Source: Planctopirus limnophila DSM 3776
Lineage (GTDB): Bacteria; Planctomycetota; Planctomycetia; Planctomycetales; Planctomycetaceae
NCBI RefSeq assembly: GCF_000092105.1
Contig: NC_014148.1
Location: 3,450,001 to 3,482,000, forward strand
Direction of reading: 5' to 3'
DNA: 32,000 nucleotides
The translations under genes and the position numbers were made by a program. Positions 4,565 to 14,857 of this stretch are shown piece by piece. Below the pieces are notes generated by a model that had not been told where the DNA came from, ran no database searches, and worked only from the letters and a program-made list of their open reading frames with translations. Position 1 is the first letter of the stretch. Every line of letters begins with the position of its first letter.

Positions 4565-6622
4565 TCACTGTGAAGCTGAAGACACAACTGCTGATCGAGG
4601 ACCAGTATCAGCAAGTGGTCGAGGCTGAGATCGGTCGGGCCACCAGCCGAGTTCTCGATAAACGGGTGAGTTGATCTGGAATCCTTGTTGGGGTTGTGAG
4701 CGATCAACCAGTAAGGGATCAGCCAATAGAGAATCCTTATCGTACCCCAGTTCTTGCCAGGCCGCCCATTTCCACATTCCCCACCTCCATGGCTGCGGGG
4801 CATTCGAGAAGTAGAGATTCTTGTTGAGCTGCACGTTGCGGTTTTTCCAGTTCGAATGCAGAAAGTGGCCAGTCGTATTGACAACGACGTTCTGCTCGAA
4901 CGTAAATGAGTTGTGCTCTTCTTCCTTAGACCGGCGCACTCCCCCTTCACCACAATCGACAATCAGATTGCGGCGAATGATGTTGTCTTTACCATAGTGC
5001 TGATGAAAACCAGCCTTCATACAGCGGGCGACGACGTTTTCTTCCAGCAGAATGCCCGTCGAACCTTCGTCGGTATAGAGCCCCCACGCTCCGTATTCGT
5101 GGCACTTCAAGTCATGAATCAGATTTTTGCGAACAATCGTTCCCGGCTGTGGGCCCAGCAGATAAACACCACCCATATCGCTGAGAAGATCGCTTCCCAG
5201 ATGGTGGATATGATTGTGTTCGACGATGTTGTGATGGCAGGGAGACTCTTTATAGCCCCAGGTCCAGCCAACCGAGATCCCGGAGTAAGGAGCATCGAAG
5301 ATCGTGTTATCCGAAATCCGGTTTTCACTCGACTGAAAGACGATGACACCCACAGCACCAAAATCAATGTTTCCATAGCGGCTGATCTGACAACCAGACA
5401 CGATGTTTCGACTGACCTGCTTTTCCGACTCGGGTGCGATCACCGCCTCACCAATCCGGATCCCGCCCGCCCCCAGGTTATGCAATCGGCAGTTTTCAAT
5501 CCGAATGGAATTGCTGCCTGTCTGCAAATCTACGCCATATCCCGCGACTAGAGAAACTGTTGAGTTTTTGAGCGTACAGTGACGAGCCCAGCGGAATTGT
5601 ATGGCACCGCGCCTTTTGGCCGCCGCCTGCACATCGATTTCGCCTTGAGCAGAAAATGAACTCCCACATTCCCGGAAATCAAGCCCCTCCAGTGTCACGT
5701 TTTCGGCATGGTCAACGACCACCAAGGCTTCCAGTAGCGAGACATCGACTCGTGGGATTGCCGATGAAGAACCTGCCTGTGCGAGTGGTTTCCAGAGGAT
5801 GGCATTTTCAGCCGGTCGATAAATCCATTCTCCCTCACGATTGATGTCAGTTAACGAGTTTTCGAACCAGAAGCGGTTCTTCTTTTCCTGCCGATGGCCG
5901 ATGGCTGCCAGTGGAAGTGTCAGCGTACGTTGCCTGGTGTCAATGCCCGTCACAACCTGCTCAAAGCCAGCCCATTTCTGAACTGCTCGAACGACCAGGC
6001 CCGACCCTTCCTGCCAGGCAGAATTCCAGTGCTCTTGAGGAATCTCCAGTTGGATGGGCCCATTTGTCTGAAGAGTCTGTTCTGTCTCCAACCAGCCAGC
6101 ATCAGGAGTGCGAGCCCGGGCCAGGAGTTTCCCATCGTGAAAGATCAGTCGAGGGCTGAGATGTGCCGGAACCGGCATGGGTAAAGTGGCTTGCCATAGC
6201 CCGTCATGCCCTGCGACAGGCTTCCAATCGTGAAGTGAAATCGACCCGCGAATAATGGATCCCGGCGAGCCCCTAAGAGTCATCCCGTTATGCTTGGCAG
6301 TCAACTTCAGTGTCTTGTCGAGTCGATATTCTCCCGGAGAGAGAATGATTGTCGCCCCCGGTTCCTTCGCCACGATCCGATCGATCGTTTTCTGAAGAGA
6401 CCCTTCGACAAGACCTTCGGGGGATATTCGACTGGCATCAGCAGCCAGACTTTCCAGGGGCGTTAGGACTGCTATTGCCAGAAGTGTCACCAGAATCTGG
6501 CAGATATCTGATACAGGAGTTTGGTATCGTGACCCTTCTAAAACTCTTGTATTTTTTGGGGCGGACACAACCTGTGTTGCTGACAGTCGCTGCCACATGG
6601 CAATCCTCTTCCTCAACTTCAC
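4565..6622 (-). CDS. secreted right-handed parallel beta-helix repeat protein (possible polysaccharide lyase/hydrolase)
   Basis: 685-aa ORF with a hydrophobic signal-like segment (ICQILVTLLAIAVLTPLESLAADA). It has many short repeats of the type N.T..N..V / I..N.I.D..Y.GI / I.RN.I.D typical of parallel beta-helix proteins. The start could be GTG 6622 or ATG 6598. The catalytic class cannot be assigned by eye. Confidence 0.7.
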   Translation of the reverse strand: MKLRKRIAMWQRLSATQVVSAPKNTRVLEGSRYQTPVSDICQILVTLLAIAVLTPLESLAADASRISPEGLVEGSLQKTIDRIVAKEPGATIILSPGEYRLDKTLKLTAKHNGMTLRGSPGSIIRGSISLHDWKPVAGHDGLWQATLPMPVPAHLSPRLIFHDGKLLARARTPDAGWLETEQTLQTNGPIQLEIPQEHWNSAWQEGSGLVVRAVQKWAGFEQVVTGIDTRQRTLTLPLAAIGHRQEKKNRFWFENSLTDINREGEWIYRPAENAILWKPLAQAGSSSAIPRVDVSLLEALVVVDHAENVTLEGLDFRECGSSFSAQGEIDVQAAAKRRGAIQFRWARHCTLKNSTVSLVAGYGVDLQTGSNSIRIENCRLHNLGAGGIRIGEAVIAPESEKQVSRNIVSGCQISRYGNIDFGAVGVIVFQSSENRISDNTIFDAPYSGISVGWTWGYKESPCHHNIVEHNHIHHLGSDLLSDMGGVYLLGPQPGTIVRKNLIHDLKCHEYGAWGLYTDEGSTGILLEENVVARCMKAGFHQHYGKDNIIRRNLIVDCGEGGVRRSKEEEHNSFTFEQNVVVNTTGHFLHSNWKNRNVQLNKNLYFSNAPQPWRWGMWKWAAWQELGYDKDSLLADPLLVDRSQPQQGFQINSPVYRELGWWPDRSQPRPLADTGPRSAVVSSASQ

Positions 6623-6698: not shown

Positions 6699-8051
6699 TT
6701 ACTGGGGAAAACACTTGCCGAATGCCACCAGCAGCTTGAGTGGACCTCTCAGGCGGATTTTACGTGTCAGTAATGCCCAGACGATGTGGCGTTCCTTTCG
6801 AAGAAACCCAATCCAGGTCGAAGCCTCTGCGTTGATGCTGAGATCGGCATTACCCTGGTGCCCTTCTGTGACTGTCAAAGCCTGGTCATGAATCTGAAAC
6901 GTCGCCCGCTGAGGCTGCCCCTTCGAGATTTCATCGCCAGTAAACGTGAAATGGAATGTGGCATTCAACTCAGCCGATTGCTTTGGCTGAAAAACATGCG
7001 GAGCCCCTTTGAGGAACCCTTCAATCGTGGCAGGCCGCAGACCGTTGCCGACGATTTTGACTTTCTTGTGAGGAAATCGACGGGTGACGTGCTGCTGGGC
7101 ATCGGAGTTCTTCAGCACATAGATGGTCTCGTGCTTGTCTTGCAGTGGACGCACAATCTCCCTGAGATGCTCTTTTTTGTCCGCAAGATAGGGGCCGATG
7201 ACATCTTCTCCTGCCGGGCAAACTGACAGGCAATACGCCGCCTTATAATTGGGACCAAACGAGAGACTTTGCCACAACGATGAAGACTCGGCATCGGTCA
7301 CTCGCTGGCGATATTCGACAGCATTCCTGCTATCAACGACCTGCTCCACCCAATCCGTGAAGCCTCCCATGAATTCGCGATAGTTGTGTGTATAGCAGGC
7401 AGAAAAATCGAATTGACCATCGGCTGAAATCGCACCTACCGGGCAGGCGGCTACGCAAAGTTTGCACTCCAGGCACGGGTTGTAACTGATGGGATCGTCG
7501 TATGCCGAAATCTCGGCATCGAGCAGAATTGTCCCCAGAAGTATGAAGTTACCAAATCGTGGATGAATCACATTGCGATGAATTCCCATCATCCCCAGCC
7601 CGGCAGCGACAGCAACTGGTTTGTGGGACACCACCCAGACCTTCCCGGGAAAGTCAGCCATCTCCATAGGAAAACCCATGGAGGGATTCATAGCTCCAAT
7701 ACCACGATCTTCAAGCTGGCGGACAATGCGGTGAGCGATTTCATTCACCTCATCACCGCAATGATGAAACTCCAGATTAGCCACAGATCGAGAGGGAGAA
7801 CGAATGGGTTCGCGATTCATCCGCACGACAATGCTCATGAGCGCTTTCGTCCGGGGGTAAGCCTTCAAGATCTCGTGCCGCTCCTGATCCAGAACAGGCC
7901 TGCCGATCTCGATGAATCCCACATCATCGGCACCAGCATCGCGTGCCAGTTGCTTCAGTTCACTGGCCTGCAAAACTGCTGCTGGACTTGCTGGCCCAGA
8001 CTGATTTTTCTCGCGGTAGGCCAGCACTGTCGGATGCTTTTCAATCTTCAT
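6699..8051 (-). CDS. QueG / reductive-dehalogenase-superfamily-like Fe-S protein fused to a C-terminal SCP2 (sterol-carrier-like) domain
   Basis: AAGLGMMGIHRNVIHPRFGNFILLGTILLD followed by CLECKLCVAACPVGAI (CxxCxxCxxxCP) and a later CLSVCPAG resembles the core of epoxyqueuosine reductase/RdhA-type enzymes. The last 100 aa or so (ATFHFTFTGDE...NADLSINAEASTWIGFLRKE...ALLTRKIRLRGPLKLLVAFGKCF) match the SCP2 pattern. Confidence 0.65.
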   Translation of the reverse strand: MKIEKHPTVLAYREKNQSGPASPAAVLQASELKQLARDAGADDVGFIEIGRPVLDQERHEILKAYPRTKALMSIVVRMNREPIRSPSRSVANLEFHHCGDEVNEIAHRIVRQLEDRGIGAMNPSMGFPMEMADFPGKVWVVSHKPVAVAAGLGMMGIHRNVIHPRFGNFILLGTILLDAEISAYDDPISYNPCLECKLCVAACPVGAISADGQFDFSACYTHNYREFMGGFTDWVEQVVDSRNAVEYRQRVTDAESSSLWQSLSFGPNYKAAYCLSVCPAGEDVIGPYLADKKEHLREIVRPLQDKHETIYVLKNSDAQQHVTRRFPHKKVKIVGNGLRPATIEGFLKGAPHVFQPKQSAELNATFHFTFTGDEISKGQPQRATFQIHDQALTVTEGHQGNADLSINAEASTWIGFLRKERHIVWALLTRKIRLRGPLKLLVAFGKCFPQ

Positions 8052-8093: not shown

Positions 8094-8531
8094 TTAAGAC
8101 TTTGTTCGAATTCGATCAGACGATGTGGTGAGTTGTTGAACCATCTCAGCGCCGAGAGTGGCGATCACTTGCGACTGAGCGGCTTCCCAAAACCCGGCTG
8201 CCGTTTCCAGAAGCTGGCGTCCTTCGCTGGTCAGCCGGACTTGCTGTGCCCTGCCGTCGTTGTCGTCGCTCAGCAACTCCAGCCAGCCTCGATTTTTCAT
8301 TCTCTCCAGATTGCGGCTGAGAGTCGAAACATCGATATGAAGTGCCTCACCGAGATCCGTAGGACGTGGCAAGCCCATCAAGGCGACAACCACCAGAATG
8401 TTCATCTGGCTGACTTTCAACCCCAATGGGCGCAATGCCTCATCGTAGACATTCGTAACGACTCTATTGAGCATACGCAGCCGCACGGCCACGCACTCCC
8501 TCGCAATCTGCTCAATTCGAATTTGGGACAC
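8094..8531 (-). CDS. MarR-family transcriptional regulator
   Basis: 145-aa ORF with a GTG start. The winged-HTH pattern LGLKVSQMNILVVVALMG.PRPTDLGEALHIDVSTLSRNLERMKNRGWLE......DGR...V.LT..G is classic MarR. It lies 42 nt upstream of the Fe-S/SCP2 gene on the same strand. Confidence 0.85.
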   Translation of the reverse strand: MSQIRIEQIARECVAVRLRMLNRVVTNVYDEALRPLGLKVSQMNILVVVALMGLPRPTDLGEALHIDVSTLSRNLERMKNRGWLELLSDDNDGRAQQVRLTSEGRQLLETAAGFWEAAQSQVIATLGAEMVQQLTTSSDRIRTKS

Positions 8532-8792: not shown

Positions 8793-11483
8793 CTATTCTT
8801 CCTCGAACGACTTCCTCGAACGATGGGGATTTGCCTGAGTGGCAACCGCCAGTGGGAGTTTCGAGATGTAGGTTTGAACGAACTGAATGGCCTCGTCGAC
8901 CTGGTCAGCCTGAATGAGTACCAGATCGCCGGGTTCCATCCGCTGGAGGCACATTTCAATCGCAACCATTTCACCACGCGTTTCGAGGATACTTGAAAGC
9001 CTACCCCCTTGAGAGAGGCCTTGCCGCATCAGTCGGATGACTTCGCCATCCGCCCGGCCGCGCGTGCATTGATCCTCGTAGATCACGATCTCATCAAAGC
9101 CACTGGCAATGAGCTGCGCCTGTCGCACGATATCTTCATCGCGGCGATCGCCTGCAGCCGTATAAACAATCCGGCGGCGGCCATGTGGCAACTGGTTGAT
9201 CGCATCGAGTAAGGCGACAATCGCCGATGAATTGTGGCCATAATCGATAATCAGCGTGGCTCCAGCCGCTTCCAGCACATTAAACCGGGCCGGTGCCTTG
9301 CGGATATCACTGCTGAACGTCTCGAGTGCCGAACGGATCGTTTCGAAGGGAATGCCCAGGGCCCAGGCCGCAGCCATCGAAGCCATGGTGTTATCGACCT
9401 GAAAACCAATCAGCCCCGAGAATGTCAGCGGGACATTATTGAGCGACGCCACTCGCGCACTCCAGCTTCCTTCGGCTGCTATGAGCCAGTTCTGCTGGGT
9501 ATAGACGGCTTTACCGCCTTTGGCCAGATGCGACTTGACTGCAGGATGATCACCTGAGCGGGCAAAGAGAATCACTTTCCCGGGGCAATAATCAGCCATG
9601 GCAAGAGTGATGGGATCTTCGGCATTCAGGACGGCATGACCATCGGGTGATACGTTCTCGACAATCACACGCTTGACGCGTCCAAGTTGTTCGGCTGTCT
9701 CAATGCCAGCCATCCCGAGATGATCGCCTTCCCCAATATTGGTCACAATGGCGACATGGCAGCGGTCAAAGCCGAGCCCTTCGCGCAGAATTCCACCACG
9801 GGCGGTTTCGAGCACAGCCGCTTCGACAGTGGGGTTTGAAAGAACAGTTCGAGCACTGCGCGGGCCACTGCAATCGCCCGTATCAATGCGACGATCATCG
9901 ATGTAGACACCATCGGTGCAGGTCATGCCGACGCATTTACCCTGCTGACGGAAGATATGTGCCATGAGGCGTGTCGTGGTCGTTTTTCCATTCGTTCCCG
10001 TCACTGACACGATGGGTACACGACCATCGTCGCCGGGAGGGAACATGGTATTTACAATTGCTTCACCCACCGGACGAGGTTGACCGGAGGAAGGCTGGAG
10101 ATGCATCCGCAGTCCCGGAGCGGCGTTGATCTCGACAATCACACCGCCCTGCTGCTCGAGCGGCCGACTGATGTCACTGGCCACCACATCGACACCGGCA
10201 ATATCGAGGCCCACCATGCGGACGGCATCAATCACTCGTGCAGCGACTTCCGGATGGACTAACTCAGTCACATCAGCAGCGCTGCCACCGGTACTGAGAT
10301 TGGCATTACGCCGCAACAGCACCAGTTGGCCTGCAGCGGGAACGGAATCGGGAATCAATCCCTGATCAGCCAGCACAGCACAGGCGATATCATCGAGCGG
10401 AATCTTGCTGAGCGGCGTGGCGTGATCTTCACCACGGCGCGGATCGAGATTGACCTCACGAACCAGTTCGCGAATGGTGTGACGCCCATCCCCCACGACT
10501 TGTGGAGGTTCACGGCGAGCAGCAGCCACCAGTTTGTAGCCGATAATCAGCAGTCGATAATCCGAACCGGGAGCAAACTTCTCGACGAGAATCTCGCGTC
10601 CTTCTTCCCGAGCTGCAGCAAAGGCAGAGAAGACCTGCTCTTTGGAAGACAGGTTAACCGCAACTCCCCGGCCCTGGTTGCCATCTTTAGGTTTGATGAC
10701 CACGGGCAGACCGATTTCGAGAGCGGCAGCCCAGGCATCTTCGGCATCCACGACCTGCCGCCCTTTAGGGACAGGGACGCCCACCGCCTCCAGAAGGTTC
10801 TTCGTCAGTTCTTTGTCCTGAACGATCGCCTCAGCCACAGCACTGGTGCGATCTGTTTCAGCCGCGAGTATGCGATGCTGTTTGCAACCATAGCCTAACT
10901 GAACCAGACTGCGGGTATTCAAGCGGCGGAAAGGGATGCCACGAGCCACAGCCGCCATGACGATCGAATTGGTACTTGGCCCGAGTCGAATCTGCTGGTC
11001 GAGTGTCCGCAGTTCGTCAACCATTTCCGCAGCAGACATCGCCAGCTCAGGAGCGTGCCCGGGAAGCAGATTCTCCAGTGCGAGGGCATGACGGGACAAA
11101 CGCAAAGCGTCCTTCAATGCCTGCCGGCCCACATCTTCTTCGCAATACTCAAAGGCAATGCGAAATAAGCCAGTCTCTCTGGTTTCGACAACGCGCCCCA
11201 GCGTGACGAGTGAACCCGCCGCATTCTGCAAGCCCACCACCAGTCGTACCACAACCTCAGCGACTCCCAGCAGGATCGAGCGATCCTGTTGTGTCTGGCT
11301 GAAGACTTCGGTTTCATCTTCCTGTGCGAGAAAGGCCGCCATCTCTGTCAGTTGTCCGCGGAACTTGGCCAGTTCCAGGGGAAACTGCATGGTCACCTGA
11401 CGCAAATCCAGGGTGGCTTCTATGACGGTCAATTGAGACCAGACATTCGGCCCACGCAACGCGCGGACATTCGCCAACTCCAT
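8793..11483 (-). CDS. cphA: cyanophycin synthetase (copy with intact G- and M-domain motifs)
   Basis: The start is taken at ATG 11483 (MELANVRALRGPNVWS, the usual CphA N-terminus); the track start 11522 is a GTG extension. ATP-grasp blocks: VVIKPKDGNQGRGV, ANLSTGGSAADVT..VHP, VIVEINAAPGLRMH. Mur-ligase-like blocks: P-loop VTGTNGKTTTTR, NIGEGDHLG, VLNAEDP, IIDYGHNS, AAGDRRDED. Confidence 0.9.
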   Translation of the reverse strand: MELANVRALRGPNVWSQLTVIEATLDLRQVTMQFPLELAKFRGQLTEMAAFLAQEDETEVFSQTQQDRSILLGVAEVVVRLVVGLQNAAGSLVTLGRVVETRETGLFRIAFEYCEEDVGRQALKDALRLSRHALALENLLPGHAPELAMSAAEMVDELRTLDQQIRLGPSTNSIVMAAVARGIPFRRLNTRSLVQLGYGCKQHRILAAETDRTSAVAEAIVQDKELTKNLLEAVGVPVPKGRQVVDAEDAWAAALEIGLPVVIKPKDGNQGRGVAVNLSSKEQVFSAFAAAREEGREILVEKFAPGSDYRLLIIGYKLVAAARREPPQVVGDGRHTIRELVREVNLDPRRGEDHATPLSKIPLDDIACAVLADQGLIPDSVPAAGQLVLLRRNANLSTGGSAADVTELVHPEVAARVIDAVRMVGLDIAGVDVVASDISRPLEQQGGVIVEINAAPGLRMHLQPSSGQPRPVGEAIVNTMFPPGDDGRVPIVSVTGTNGKTTTTRLMAHIFRQQGKCVGMTCTDGVYIDDRRIDTGDCSGPRSARTVLSNPTVEAAVLETARGGILREGLGFDRCHVAIVTNIGEGDHLGMAGIETAEQLGRVKRVIVENVSPDGHAVLNAEDPITLAMADYCPGKVILFARSGDHPAVKSHLAKGGKAVYTQQNWLIAAEGSWSARVASLNNVPLTFSGLIGFQVDNTMASMAAAWALGIPFETIRSALETFSSDIRKAPARFNVLEAAGATLIIDYGHNSSAIVALLDAINQLPHGRRRIVYTAAGDRRDEDIVRQAQLIASGFDEIVIYEDQCTRGRADGEVIRLMRQGLSQGGRLSSILETRGEMVAIEMCLQRMEPGDLVLIQADQVDEAIQFVQTYISKLPLAVATQANPHRSRKSFEEE

Positions 11484-11704
11484 AAAGCATCCTTTGTCAA
11501 TGTCGCGGCAAACTGTCGTCACTGGGAGGTGGCATAGGCACTGGCCTGCCGCCGGTCGCTGGCATCAATGATCAATTGCTGCCAATGACCCTTTTCCTGT
11601 AAAGCCCAGACTCCAGTCAGGCGACATCCTGCCGCCTCGTGCCAGTCCTGCTGCTGGCTACTGAGTGTTGATCCTGTTGTATCGTCAAAATCAAGGTCGA
11701 TCAG

Positions 11705-11998
11705 TCACAAGTTCGCTTTGAGTCGAAGTGGTAGTTCCATCAAAGCAATTCCAGCAACACTTGTCATCAAGATGATAAAAGCTGTCGCAAGAATGACGAA
11801 TTTGTGAGTAGATCCTGCTCCCTGATACGTTGCTGCTGCTCGTGTCTTGTGAATTGTTATGCAAAGAGAAATCAAATCAAAGATGATTGAAATAAGTTCC
11901 TGCGAAGTTACGCAAGTGACGCAGGCCCGGTTAACAAAAATCTTGTTCACTGAAACTGAACACCAACCCTCGCAATTTGTATCTTCAGCAAATCTCAA
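11705..11998 (-). CDS. hypothetical small protein (doubtful ORF) in the AT-rich spacer between the two cphA genes
   Basis: 97-aa track ORF with two hydrophobic stretches (LISIIFDLISLCITI and FVILATAFIILMTSVAGIALM). Its composition is unusual (Cys/Ile-rich, AT-rich codons) and I recognise no family. Confidence 0.2.
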   Translation of the reverse strand: MRFAEDTNCEGWCSVSVNKIFVNRACVTCVTSQELISIIFDLISLCITIHKTRAAATYQGAGSTHKFVILATAFIILMTSVAGIALMELPLRLKANL

Positions 11999-12104
11999 CC
12001 CGTGATTTCAAACACTTAAACTGCCAATACTGTCGATTTGGAACACCCGAGACTGAATCTTCTCTGAGTCTTCTGAAGTCGTCCCCAAGATGAAAACAGC
12101 GACT

Positions 12105-14720
12105 CTACGCTTTACTGACAAGCTCTAACCCTAGAAGCTGCTGAACCTTACGAATAGTGGCAGAAATCGCCCCAGCCTGAATCAACAGGACATCTCCCTC
12201 GCGAAAATCGTGCCAGGCAGCATCGACCGCCTTTTGCCAATCCTCTTCCAGATTCACGCAAAGCTTTTCTGAATCAGCGGTTGCACGAATTGAAGCGAGC
12301 AGAAGTTCTCTTGGTGCATCCGCACCCGTCGTGGCACAGCCTGGCAAATGATACAAGTAAAAATTCTGGAAATGCTCTGCGAGCAACTCTCCCTGTTGCG
12401 TGATATCGCTGTGGATTCGATCGTTTTCCGCAGCGTAAACCACCAACTTTCGCTGGCTCGAGAAGGCCTCCAAGCCGGCAATCGTGGCTTTAAGGGCTGA
12501 CGGATTCCGGGCATCGACGACAATCAGCGTTTTTCCACCCAATTGAAAAACGTTGAACCGGCCCGGATCGTCTGCCAGATTTCCCTGGAAGTGCTGCAAT
12601 CCAGCGGCGATTGCCGAGAACGGAATCTTGAGTCCCCAGGCGGCGGCAGTCGCAGCCAGTACGTTATCAATCTGAAAGCCGATCCGTCCGCCATGGGTAC
12701 AGGGAACATCTGCCAGACGGACAATTTGCGACGAGAGCCCGCCATCACCCGCGACAATCCAGCCGTCGCGTACGAAAACCACTTTCTTACCTTCACTGCG
12801 ATGCTGCGAAAGCACAGGCTGACGCTCATCACGGGCAAAGAAAATCACCCCGCCCGCAGAAAGTGTGGACATCTTTGCCACCCAGGGATCGGCCGCATTC
12901 AGGACTGCGAAGCCACCCGGCATCACCACATCAACCGGCGTTCGCTTCACCGAATACATCTTTTCCACAGTATGAATATCGTATTCACCCAGATGATCCG
13001 GCTCAGACAGGTTCGTGACGACAGCCACATCGCACTTGTCGAACCCTAGCCCTTCGCGGAGAATTCCGCCACGGCCCGCTTCGAGGACCGCAGCCTCGAC
13101 GGTGGGATTCAGCAGCACGGCCCGCGCACTCTTGGGCCCTGCACAATCGCCCAGCTCAATCACGCGATCTTCCACGACAATTCCGTCACTGGTGGCCACG
13201 CCGACCTTGATTCCTGCCTGACGGAGAATGCTGGCGACGAGCCGACTGGTGGTCGTTTTTCCGTTCACGCCCGTCACGCAAACCAGAGGAATGCGGCCAG
13301 AAGTTCCCGGTGGAAAGAGTCGCTCAAGAATGGCTTCTCCCACGGGGCGAGGTTTCCCGACGGCGGGCCGCAGATGCATCAATAATCCCGGCCCGGCATT
13401 CACTTCGACAATCGCCCCACCCTGCTCCTCCAGAGGCTGGGAAATGTCTTCTGTAACAATATCGACACCAGCGATATCCAATCCTACGATCCGAGCCGCC
13501 ATCACCGCATGCTCGGCGTTGCGCGGATGAACTTCATCAGTTACGTCGATCGACAAATTGTCATTCCGACGAACAATGACAACCGCACCAGCGGGAGGAA
13601 TCGACTCCGGGGTGTAACCTTGCCGCTTCAGTTCGAGCAAGACCACGCCGTCATCAAGGCGGACAGTACTCAATGGAAAAATCTCATCATCGCCCCGGCG
13701 AGGATCGCTGTTCACCTGCCGTTGAATCAATTCCGCGACGTTGTGCTCACCGTCACCCTCGATCTTGGCGGCATCTCCCCGAGAGGCGGCCACCAGCCTG
13801 TCGCCGACCACCAGCAGGCGATGCTCTGATCCTGGAGCAAAACGCTCCACAATCACACCACTTCCCTCCTGGGAAGCTACCACGAAGGCATCACGGATCT
13901 CTTCTTCCGTTTCGAGATTCATGCACACGCCACGACCATGATTGGCGTCAATCGGCTTAACAACAATGGGCCCCTCAATCTCCTGAGAAGCTTCCCACGC
14001 ATCGCCGGGGTCTTTGACCTCGCGACCTTCCGGAACAGGAACACCGGCAGCGCGGAGCATCGATTTCGTCAGGTCTTTATCCTGGGCAATCGATTCGGCA
14101 ATCGCACTCGTGCTATCAGTTTCAGCTGTCCAGATTCTTCTCTGGCGAAAGCCCTGCCCCAGTTGCACCAGACTCCCTGTGTTCAATCGTCGGTAAGGAA
14201 TGTTCCTGGCGAGAGCGGCGGAAACAATCGCCTGTGTACTTGGCCCAAGGCAAACACGATCGGCCAGTTCCCTGAGTCGAATCGTTTCAGCCTGGATGTC
14301 GAAAGGCTGGTCGTAAACGGCGGCAAGGCATAATCGATGAGCGACTTCCAGAGCCGCCCGGCCCACCGATTCTTCGGCGTATCGAATGGCGACTTTGTAG
14401 ACACCCTCTTCGGATGTTTCGCGAGCTCTGCCAAAGCCCACATTGGTGCCAGCCATTGTCTGGAGTTCGAGAGTCACATGCTCCAGGATGTGTGCGAGAT
14501 AAGTTCCCCGCCTGAGCCTCACAAAGAAACCACCCCGTTCGCCGACACTGCAGCGATGCTCGATCATGCCCGGGAGCCAGCTCATGAGTCGATCATTGAA
14601 GCCGGGAATCAGCTCCGACGAAAGATCCTTCAGCGGCCCCAGATCGACCAGAGCTTCTAAACATGGTTGACGCGACCAGATATTCGGTCCACGAAGGGCG
14701 CGGACACTCCGAATCTGCAT
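12105..14720 (-). CDS. cyanophycin synthetase-like paralogue (canonical N domain; G- and M-domain motifs partly lost)
   Basis: The start is taken at ATG 14720 (MQIRSVRALRGPNIWS); the track start 14798 is a TTG extension. Retained motifs: IEHRCSVGERGGF...GTYLAHILEHVTLELQ, KPIDANHGRGV, IVEVNAGPGLLMH and the P-loop VTGVNGKTTTSR. Missing or changed: the STGG loop, and the DYxHN and GDRRD equivalents read DARNP and ENDRI. Confidence 0.9.
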   Translation of the reverse strand: MQIRSVRALRGPNIWSRQPCLEALVDLGPLKDLSSELIPGFNDRLMSWLPGMIEHRCSVGERGGFFVRLRRGTYLAHILEHVTLELQTMAGTNVGFGRARETSEEGVYKVAIRYAEESVGRAALEVAHRLCLAAVYDQPFDIQAETIRLRELADRVCLGPSTQAIVSAALARNIPYRRLNTGSLVQLGQGFRQRRIWTAETDSTSAIAESIAQDKDLTKSMLRAAGVPVPEGREVKDPGDAWEASQEIEGPIVVKPIDANHGRGVCMNLETEEEIRDAFVVASQEGSGVIVERFAPGSEHRLLVVGDRLVAASRGDAAKIEGDGEHNVAELIQRQVNSDPRRGDDEIFPLSTVRLDDGVVLLELKRQGYTPESIPPAGAVVIVRRNDNLSIDVTDEVHPRNAEHAVMAARIVGLDIAGVDIVTEDISQPLEEQGGAIVEVNAGPGLLMHLRPAVGKPRPVGEAILERLFPPGTSGRIPLVCVTGVNGKTTTSRLVASILRQAGIKVGVATSDGIVVEDRVIELGDCAGPKSARAVLLNPTVEAAVLEAGRGGILREGLGFDKCDVAVVTNLSEPDHLGEYDIHTVEKMYSVKRTPVDVVMPGGFAVLNAADPWVAKMSTLSAGGVIFFARDERQPVLSQHRSEGKKVVFVRDGWIVAGDGGLSSQIVRLADVPCTHGGRIGFQIDNVLAATAAAWGLKIPFSAIAAGLQHFQGNLADDPGRFNVFQLGGKTLIVVDARNPSALKATIAGLEAFSSQRKLVVYAAENDRIHSDITQQGELLAEHFQNFYLYHLPGCATTGADAPRELLLASIRATADSEKLCVNLEEDWQKAVDAAWHDFREGDVLLIQAGAISATIRKVQQLLGLELVSKA
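12201..12215 (-). promoter_or_regulatory. sigma-54-type -24/-12 element match (TGGCACG-ATTT-TCGC) inside the 3' end of the upstream cphA paralogue
   Basis: Read directly on the minus strand. GG and GC have the canonical spacing. There is one mismatch to TGGCACG-N4-TTGC. It points towards the spacer and the downstream cphA. Confidence 0.25.
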
Positions 14721-14857
14721 GGCAAAACTTTCCCCGTGGGGAGGTATGGCAATCGTTGAAAAATCGCAGCGATCAACTGAAAACCCATCGCCCTGCAAAG
14801 TCCGATGACTCTTCTCGGCACTTCTAAAGTAGGTTCCAGCGATCCACTACCATTTGA

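Follow-up and report, generated by a model that had tools for sequence, protein, structure and literature searches.

Cyanophycin synthetase is usually regarded as a stand-alone enzyme that carries all three of its active sites, and a locus of Planctopirus limnophila DSM 3776 at which two such genes stand in tandem raises the question of what the upstream copy does, as several of its canonical active-site motifs are missing or altered. The locus lies in a window of 32,000 nt (NC_014148.1, 3,450,001–3,482,000; all coordinates below are window positions) and comprises an upstream CphA1 paralogue with a shortened loop (UP; short-loop or S-type) and a downstream partner with the full loop (DN). The reading favored here, with a probability of about 0.55, is that UP is a specialized, non-aspartate-adding member of a two-gene cyanophycin synthetase and works together with DN. 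The two genes are as follows.

12105..14720, minus strand: UP, short-loop (S-type) CphA1 paralogue, 871 amino acids from ATG 14720
8793..11483, minus strand: DN, full-loop partner CphA1, 896 amino acids from the probable start ATG 11483, with canonical G and M sites

The start of UP was placed at ATG 14720 (M27 of an 897-residue version) because its homologues begin there; the open reading frame (ORF) bounds, 12105–14798, reflect a mechanical extension to TTG 14798, and residue numbers follow the 897-residue version. The ORF bounds of DN are 8793–11522. UP and DN are 45% identical across 892 columns, that is, over their whole length (BLASTP), and in both Pfam recognizes the Cyanophycin_syn N domain, the ATP-grasp G domain, Mur_ligase_M and Mur_ligase_C. 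Among solved structures the best matches of UP are CphA1 chains, both by sequence (E 1.5e-183 against 7lg5 in a HMMER comparison with solved CphA1 sequences) and by fold. An AlphaFold2 monomer model of UP (mean predicted local distance difference test 73 and predicted template modeling score 0.48, from 21 sequences) has the CphA1 enzymes of Synechocystis (SuCphA1) and Trichodesmium (TeCphA1) as its best structural matches, with 7wae as the top Foldseek hit and 37–42% identity to solved CphA1 chains as aligned by Foldseek. The modeling suggested by the original prediction thus confirmed the CphA1 fold and can be read for fold only, residues 158–210 and 518–602 and the domain arrangement (template modeling score ~0.4) being too poor for active-site geometry; in the model a continuous strand takes the place of the large loop.

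Both genes pass the NCBIfam cyanophycin synthetase equivalog TIGR02068 (UP 943 and DN 992 bits, cutoff 850). This result, together with two intact P-loops and an M catalytic core that looks intact, is what can be said for taking UP as an ordinary self-sufficient CphA1 whose changes are neutral lineage-specific variation. The anatomy of its G domain makes that view very improbable. The relevant features are these.

13929..13958, minus strand: KPIDANHGRG, G-domain phosphate loop of UP, in which His287 is the equivalent of His267 (alignment)
13776..13778, minus strand: Gly341 of UP at the position of Arg323 (alignment)
13548..13553, minus strand: Ser416/Ile417 junction of UP (Ser416 codon 13553..13551, Ile417 codon 13550..13548), where five large-loop residues (TGGxA, SuCphA1/TeCphA1 397–401) are gone (alignments)
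13380..13382, minus strand: Leu473 of UP at the position of Arg458, the contact to the alpha-carboxylate of the substrate aspartate (EVNAGPGLLMH against APGFRMH)
10278..10292, minus strand: TGGSA of the intact large loop of DN (BLASTP and alignment)
10674..10676, minus strand: Gln283 of DN at the position of His267 (DGNQGRG; alignment)

The five-residue gap that had been claimed for UP is real. BLASTP of UP against DN opens a single five-residue gap in UP, just after N-L-S and facing TGGSA; in HMMER alignments to five distinct solved CphA1 sequences (those of 7lg5, 7txv, 7wac, 7lgm and 7lgn) the gap faces T397–A401 with a placement consistent to within one residue, and MAFFT alignments of 122, 146 and 153 sequences agree. 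In Synechocystis and Trichodesmium CphA1 numbering T397–A401 is the tip of the Gomega large loop, so the gap falls inside the conserved loop and not outside it; the positions originally given for the gap, for TGGSA and for the M-domain motifs DARNP and AAENDRIH are also correct. The Gomega large loop corresponds to TeCphA1 residues 389–399, of which Asn394 holds the beta-carboxylate of the substrate aspartate, a group contacted by Arg323 as well; N394A, R323A and R458A each impair TeCphA1, and S396W is cited as abolishing Asp addition in SuCphA1 (PMC9427784). Of the substrate-aspartate site UP has lost the full loop, R323 and R458, and N394 and S396 alone remain. With the loop shortened by five residues and the two arginines replaced by Gly and Leu, free aspartate could not be positioned by UP, and on this evidence its addition by UP appears very unlikely. 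In addition, the three contacts with substrate aspartate are always altered jointly and in a monophyletic family, single alanine changes at those positions impair TeCphA1 (PMC9427784), and the positions are kept in the five distinct solved sequences and in all full-loop proteins examined, all of which speaks against neutral variation. UP keeps the residues of the G domain that serve ATP and acyl-phosphate binding (K220, K261, H267, R309, G456). KPIDANHGRGV, IVEVNAGPG and GVNGKTTT are all present as originally listed, and nucleotide-binding residues are retained in both the G and the M domain.

At the position of His267 DN carries Gln, and as H267A is the ‘G-dead’ mutation of SuCphA1 this residue was considered as a sign of a dead G site in DN. 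The idea was rejected: Gln occurs here in 9 of 11 single-gene CphA1s in which all other sites are intact, and in many representatives of a representative search. It is therefore a natural variant found in complete enzymes, His is not universally required, and the residue gives no evidence that DN is inactive.

The pattern seen in UP is a property of its family and no local accident. The deletion, a residue other than Arg at position 458 (Leu or another) and the N-site motif described below recur in each of the 119 closest homologues that were aligned (60–99% identity; Schlesneria and other Planctomycetota). A profile scan with one genome per species gave 80 related loci, in which every CphA-like ORF was classified; they belong to Planctomycetota, Verrucomicrobia and many Betaproteobacteria (Bordetella, Achromobacter, Cupriavidus, Ralstonia, Accumulibacter, Rhodocyclus, Janthinobacterium, Sideroxydans). 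The identical in-frame deletion in 119 homologues and in 70 short-loop proteins argues against both chance and sequencing error. UP itself shows the five-residue deletion, residues other than Arg at 323 and 458, and retained H267 and R309, and its gene immediately precedes, in the same orientation, that of the full-loop DN without the N-site motif, which is the arrangement of the family. Residue counts for the 70 short-loop (S) proteins and 64 full-loop partners from the 80 loci are given below.

N-site C59/H79/E82/H83: all four residues in 70/70 S proteins; complete motif in 0/64 partners
K220, K261 and R309: kept in 70/70 S proteins and 64/64 partners
Position 267: His in 70/70 S proteins; Gln in 64/64 partners
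Position 323: Gly in 69/70 S proteins; Arg in 64/64 partners
Position 458: never Arg and Leu in 63/70 S proteins; Arg in 64/64 partners
N394: kept in 67/70 S proteins and 64/64 partners
G456: kept in 65/70 S proteins
M-domain catalytic residues: decayed in most S proteins; essentially all present in partners

The large loop is full in 64/64 partners. At every two-gene locus (63/63) the S gene stands upstream of the full-loop partner on the same strand, and a partial partner follows the S gene at two further loci; the 11 single-gene loci encode full-loop proteins in which the N-site is intact and position 267 is mostly Gln. Neighbor-joining analysis of the G domain groups the 70 S proteins in a single clade with no other members, and pairwise G-domain distances of S proteins and partners are correlated (r = 0.74 across 63 pairs), which fits co-inheritance of the pair. 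In Betaproteobacteria the two genes are often only a few to tens of bases apart (stop-to-stop ORF bounds). These data also dispose of the view that UP is a decaying duplicate, a pseudogene in the making. Several degenerate canonical motifs and a fast-evolving M lid could be cited in its favor, and it is refuted by an intact frame of 871 codons, by a ratio of nonsynonymous to synonymous substitution rates (dN/dS) of ~0.03–0.1, a rough figure as dS is saturated, and by the occurrence of the same state in more than 100 clusters at 60–99% identity and in at least three phyla. UP is under selection, probably as a specialized partner subunit, and is not a pseudogene.

What UP may bring to such a partnership is suggested by the N domain, in which the two proteins differ as follows.

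14478..14552, minus strand: intact Cx19HxxEH motif of UP (C83, H103, E106, H107 in the 897-residue numbering; alignment to C59/H79/E82/H83 of SuCphA1)
11217..11345, minus strand: degenerate N-domain region of DN, with 0/4 of the Cx19HxxEH residues (alignment, Pfam)

The Cx19HxxEH site is found in ~83% of CphA1s, and the remaining sixth or so, which lack it, are read as primer-dependent enzymes. The motif marks a cryptic metallopeptidase-like site, at which cyanophycin is cleaved to yield primers (Sharon et al., 2022; PMC9262961). The Pfam Cyanophycin_syn score of DN (28.9 bits) is barely at threshold, against 127 bits for UP. Substitution rates per domain, estimated for UP and DN each against its own orthologue at locus L002, follow the same division: dN of UP is 0.065 (N), 0.072 (G), 0.082 (Mcore) and 0.316 (Mlid), and that of DN is 0.210 (N), 0.035 (G), 0.056 (Mcore) and 0.032 (Mlid), dS being above 1.2 and saturated so that dN/dS is only approximate. 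The lid of UP thus evolves ~4 times faster than the rest of the protein, and relaxation is confined to the Mlid in UP and to the N domain in DN, a mirror image of constraint.

In the M domain, UP presents the following features.

13248..13271, minus strand: GVNGKTTT, M-domain P-loop, retained in UP (alignment)
12501..12515, minus strand: DARNP replacing DYAHNP, with His748 changed to Arg (alignment)
12411..12434, minus strand: AAENDRIH replacing GPGDRRD, in the relaxed M lid (alignment)

Both replacements noted originally, VVDARNP for DYAHNP and ENDRIH for GDRRD, were found again, the latter as a lineage-specific change: ENDRIH is peculiar to the lineage of the window (shared by locus L001), L002 has the similarly altered EDDRLQ, and most relatives in the clade have EEDRRD. 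His748 contacts the ATP gamma-phosphate in TeCphA1 (PMC9427784); its change to Arg (DGRN/DARN) is common in the planctomycete clade, whereas relatives from Bordetella and Cupriavidus retain His (VDDAHN). Nine of 10 M catalytic residues (N497, K499, T500, T522, E558, D585, H586, F692, R731, H748) are present or conservatively replaced in UP, N497, K499, T500, E558, D585, H586 and R731 being kept; the exceptions are a conservative change of T522 to Ser and the change of H748 to Arg, and GDRRD reads NDRIH. About 15 S proteins have a complete-looking M domain (planctomycete members including UP, Bordetella, Achromobacter, Cupriavidus, Ralstonia), and about 50 have no M lid, the P-loop lysine being gone as well in roughly half of those. 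Judged by these residues, the catalytic core of the UP M domain is probably intact and its lid fast-evolving, and M activity appears to be lost in most relatives. DARNP and ENDRIH sit in the fastest-evolving part of UP and are thus its least diagnostic changes. Of the claim that UP is unlikely to carry out both ligations, the part that concerns free aspartate is strengthened by the loss of R323, R458 and the loop, and the part that relied on the M motifs is weakened.

In the two-protein synthetase favored here, polymerization would be performed by the complete G (Asp-adding) and M (Arg-adding) sites of DN, a protein that no longer has the N-domain peptidase site by which growing polymer is cleaved to give primers. 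The strictly selected N-domain site of UP would supply primers and take part in polymer handling, its G domain would have kept every ATP and acyl-phosphate residue around a rebuilt nucleophile pocket, and the two proteins would act together, probably as a hetero-oligomer. The contribution of UP is most likely the donation of its primer-making N domain, to judge from the sequences. We infer physical association of UP with DN and primer donation in trans because synteny, complementarity and mirror-image constraint point in the same direction. Experimental precedents exist in engineered systems: the isolated SuCphA1 N domain added in trans turns the primer-dependent TmCphA1 primer-independent, and an engineered SuCphA1 N-G+M+/N+G-M- heterodimer is active (PMC9262961). 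The natural UP/DN pair shows the same division of sites, and by this analogy UP may be taken as the partner of DN. Both tandem cphA copies are expressed in Accumulibacter metatranscriptomes (PMC10687191).

A number of points weigh against this reading. The Ralstonia eutropha H16 pair, according to the summary of Adames 2013 in PMC8560796, yielded no cyanophycin that could be detected, whether in the native host or in Escherichia coli. Association and activity across the family are inferred from sequence. If UP were an N-domain donor only, there would be no explanation for the perfect conservation of its G catalytic residues. In more distantly related short-loop proteins the N-site is gone and the G-site residues persist, so that N-site donation is not a universal function of the family; P0159, one of these proteins, lacks any partner gene within 13 kb. 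In the window itself the two genes are ~620 bp apart and may or may not be co-transcribed, and the saturation of dS leaves the dN/dS estimates approximate.

The same G residues are the key to two other explanations that the original prediction had offered. UP may be a pure pseudoenzyme or scaffold that binds nucleotide, catalyzes nothing and stabilizes or regulates DN in a hetero-oligomer; the destroyed Asp pocket, the relaxed M lid with M activity lost in most relatives, and the retention of the oligomerization core (Gcore + Mcore) even in truncated relatives are compatible with this. It is a poor fit for the G domain, in which the ATP and acyl-phosphate residues are invariant in 70/70 proteins: the N-site motif, H267 and R309 never vary, structural roles rarely fix catalytic side chains across phyla, and low values of dN are shared by the N and G domains of UP and the catalytic domains of DN. 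A catalytically silent UP is accordingly considered improbable.

The other explanation, altered chemistry, is ranked second and is tentatively entertained; it is compatible with the partner-subunit reading. It holds that the UP G domain is an active ATP-grasp ligase with a different nucleophile, and that UP is an independent enzyme for which N-domain donation is not the main role. The nucleophile would be one that lacks free alpha- and beta-carboxylates, either the N-terminal Asp of a chain (segment ligation) or the beta-Asp-Arg dipeptide (re-polymerization as in CphA2). The invariance of the G-domain ATP and acyl-phosphate residues in 70/70 proteins while M residues decay in the same proteins, and their conservation even in short-loop proteins without the N-site, agree with it, as does the precise removal of the carboxylate-binding arginines along with a shortening of the lid loop that opens the pocket. 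Most family members, moreover, have the N + G + truncated-M layout of CphA2 (PMC9427784). Against it, CphA2 retains canonical large-loop spacing (R389, N393, S395) and has no N-site motif like that of UP (PMC10273328, PMC9262961), no cyanophycinase to supply the dipeptide turned up in the window ORFs scanned, and Betaproteobacteria are reported to lack cyanophycinase genes (PMC5178258). Invariant G residues and N-site alongside drifting M residues in the same lineages point to a working, re-targeted UP G site that may use ATP. The loss of two carboxylate-binding arginines and part of the lid suggests a nucleophile without free carboxylates, for which the N-terminal Asp of another cyanophycin chain would be a fitting candidate and the beta-Asp-Arg dipeptide a less fitting one.

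A further and rather doubtful extension is that S-type proteins constitute a third, undescribed class of cyanophycin synthetase whose G domain ligates chain segments and whose N domain cuts them. The UP G domain would then phosphorylate the C-terminus of cyanophycin and link this end with the N-terminal end of a second chain or oligomer. A chain N-terminal Asp without free carboxylates would agree with the missing R323 and R458 and with the opening of the lid. Cutting and re-ligation by UP would set primer supply and chain length for DN, and many ‘primer-dependent’ CphA1s without the motif would be one half of a self-priming two-protein enzyme.

Compared with known systems, UP has the N-G-M architecture of CphA1, for which structures are solved from Synechocystis UTEX2470, Trichodesmium erythraeum, Acinetobacter baylyi and Tatumella morbirosei; it also has the N-site motif and the two P-loops, and its M catalytic core looks retained. 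It differs in the loop shorter by five residues, in R323 to Gly and R458 to Leu, by which the free-Asp site is gone, in H748 to Arg and the altered GDRRD, and in the pairing of the S-type with a second CphA1 without the N-site (63/63 two-gene loci). UP is nearer CphA1 than CphA2, the cyanobacterial beta-Asp-Arg polymerase (E 1e-183 against 8e-50). CphA2 is likewise a derived CphA1 relative, with a G site only and M inactivated, and most short-loop relatives, UP itself excepted, have its N + G + truncated-M layout. CphA2 differs, however, in its canonical large loop (N393/S395) and in having neither the N-site motif nor the M P-loop and Mlid (PMC10273328, PMC9262961, PMC9427784), whereas UP has the N-site motif, M P-loop, Mlid and a shortened loop and so does not belong to CphA2; this comparison covers the loop and N-site as given in descriptions of CphA2. 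The engineered SuCphA1 heterodimers and the N domain in trans (Sharon et al., 2022) show a functional split like the apparent one between UP and DN, with the difference that they are laboratory constructs of one gene and UP and DN are natural diverged paralogues in which the G domain of UP is remodeled, not simply killed.

Tandem cphA/cphA' (or ‘cphA1/cphA2’) pairs show the same arrangement: the Cupriavidus, Ralstonia, Bordetella and Accumulibacter loci consist of a short-loop gene followed by a full-loop gene, and the pair in the window is a planctomycete member that differs in its full-length M domain and in the absence of ABC transporter and DUF1854 genes. Neighboring cphA copies in non-cyanobacteria were reportedly noted by Krehenbrink 2002 and by Füser & Steinbüchel 2007. 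Accumulibacter, Tetrasphaera and Sideroxydans are named among their carriers (PMC10687191, PMC5178258), and structural papers of 2021–2023 and a bioinformatic survey of 2023 do not discuss tandem pairs. Neither the loop deletion nor the loss of R323 and R458 nor the complementary loss of the N-site was found described in the literature searched, which did not cover the 2007 and 2013 papers, either of which may note some of these, and the same literature contained nothing relevant on heteromeric, pseudoenzyme or CphA3 descriptions. The features that go beyond the original prediction are the R323/R458 loss, the N-site kept in UP and lost in DN, and a two-gene system spread over several phyla. 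The three active sites are thus apparently split between two co-inherited paralogues in several phyla, which offers a concrete explanation for the long-noted and unexplained tandem cphA genes. An equivalog model passed by both genes means that automatic annotation hides a distinct class. The split has implications for how such genes are expressed in foreign hosts, polymer having been undetectable in the single attempt on record, which used both genes of R. eutropha; it also raises a possible new ATP-grasp specificity and is relevant to nitrogen recovery, as Accumulibacter and related sludge bacteria carry the pair.

At ~60 of the 80 related loci (among L007–L080; see also L014:3269-5672 and L081:131-2811) a fused ABC exporter adjoins the cphA gene or genes, usually in divergent orientation; these exporters are 50–57% identical and match NCBIfam NF052233, ‘cyanophycin metabolism-associated ABC transporter’. 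A small DUF1854 protein (NF052234) was also detected in about half of the loci with the exporter. The window and its closest relatives (L001–L006) have neither. The short-loop protein P0159 (L081:2972-5107), flanked by the ABC/DUF1854 pair and with its stop codon overlapped by a Pel9A-like beta-helix gene, has lost the N-site and the M site, as have the similar P0172, P0173, P0186 and P0215; such proteins keep K220, K261, R309 and mostly H267. The representative search returned another degenerate CphA1-like class (P0128, P0132, P0133, P0135, P0137, P0141, P0198, P0241) with the N-site motif and M domain intact and a gutted G domain (phosphate loop, large loop and R458 gone), which looks like the mirror image of short-loop proteins without M. 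P0003 (1493 amino acids, from an ENA metagenome), whose first CphA fragment has the odd phosphate loop DADYGHG, was considered as a natural fusion of a short-loop and a full-loop protein and rejected, since in it a C-terminal full-loop fragment is followed by the N-terminus of another full-loop protein; a mis-called tandem from a different kind of cphA pair is the probable explanation, and P0003 gives no evidence of association. Trp672, a tetramer contact of SuCphA1, proved uninformative as a marker of a heteromer interface, the position not being conserved outside cyanobacteria.

The spacer between UP and DN (11484–12104, ~620 bp) is unusually long and holds no Rfam match and no convincing ORF. 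One weak terminator-like site (11916–11899) and one weak promoter-like site (11799–11772) lie in it; when it and the 5' region were scanned for promoters and terminators, the hits were weak consensus matches at a level expected by chance, and no Rfam RNA family was identified. Neither a cyanophycinase nor an isoaspartyl dipeptidase was found in the window ORFs scanned. The genes around UP and DN are typical planctomycete neighbors, and those downstream of DN are the following.

8094–8531, minus strand: MarR-family regulator, directly downstream of DN
6699–8051, minus strand: 4Fe-4S cluster protein
4565–6622, minus strand: right-handed beta-helix/NosD-like protein

The closest genome record is L001, a pond metagenome-assembled genome labeled Planctomyces sp., at 99% identity.

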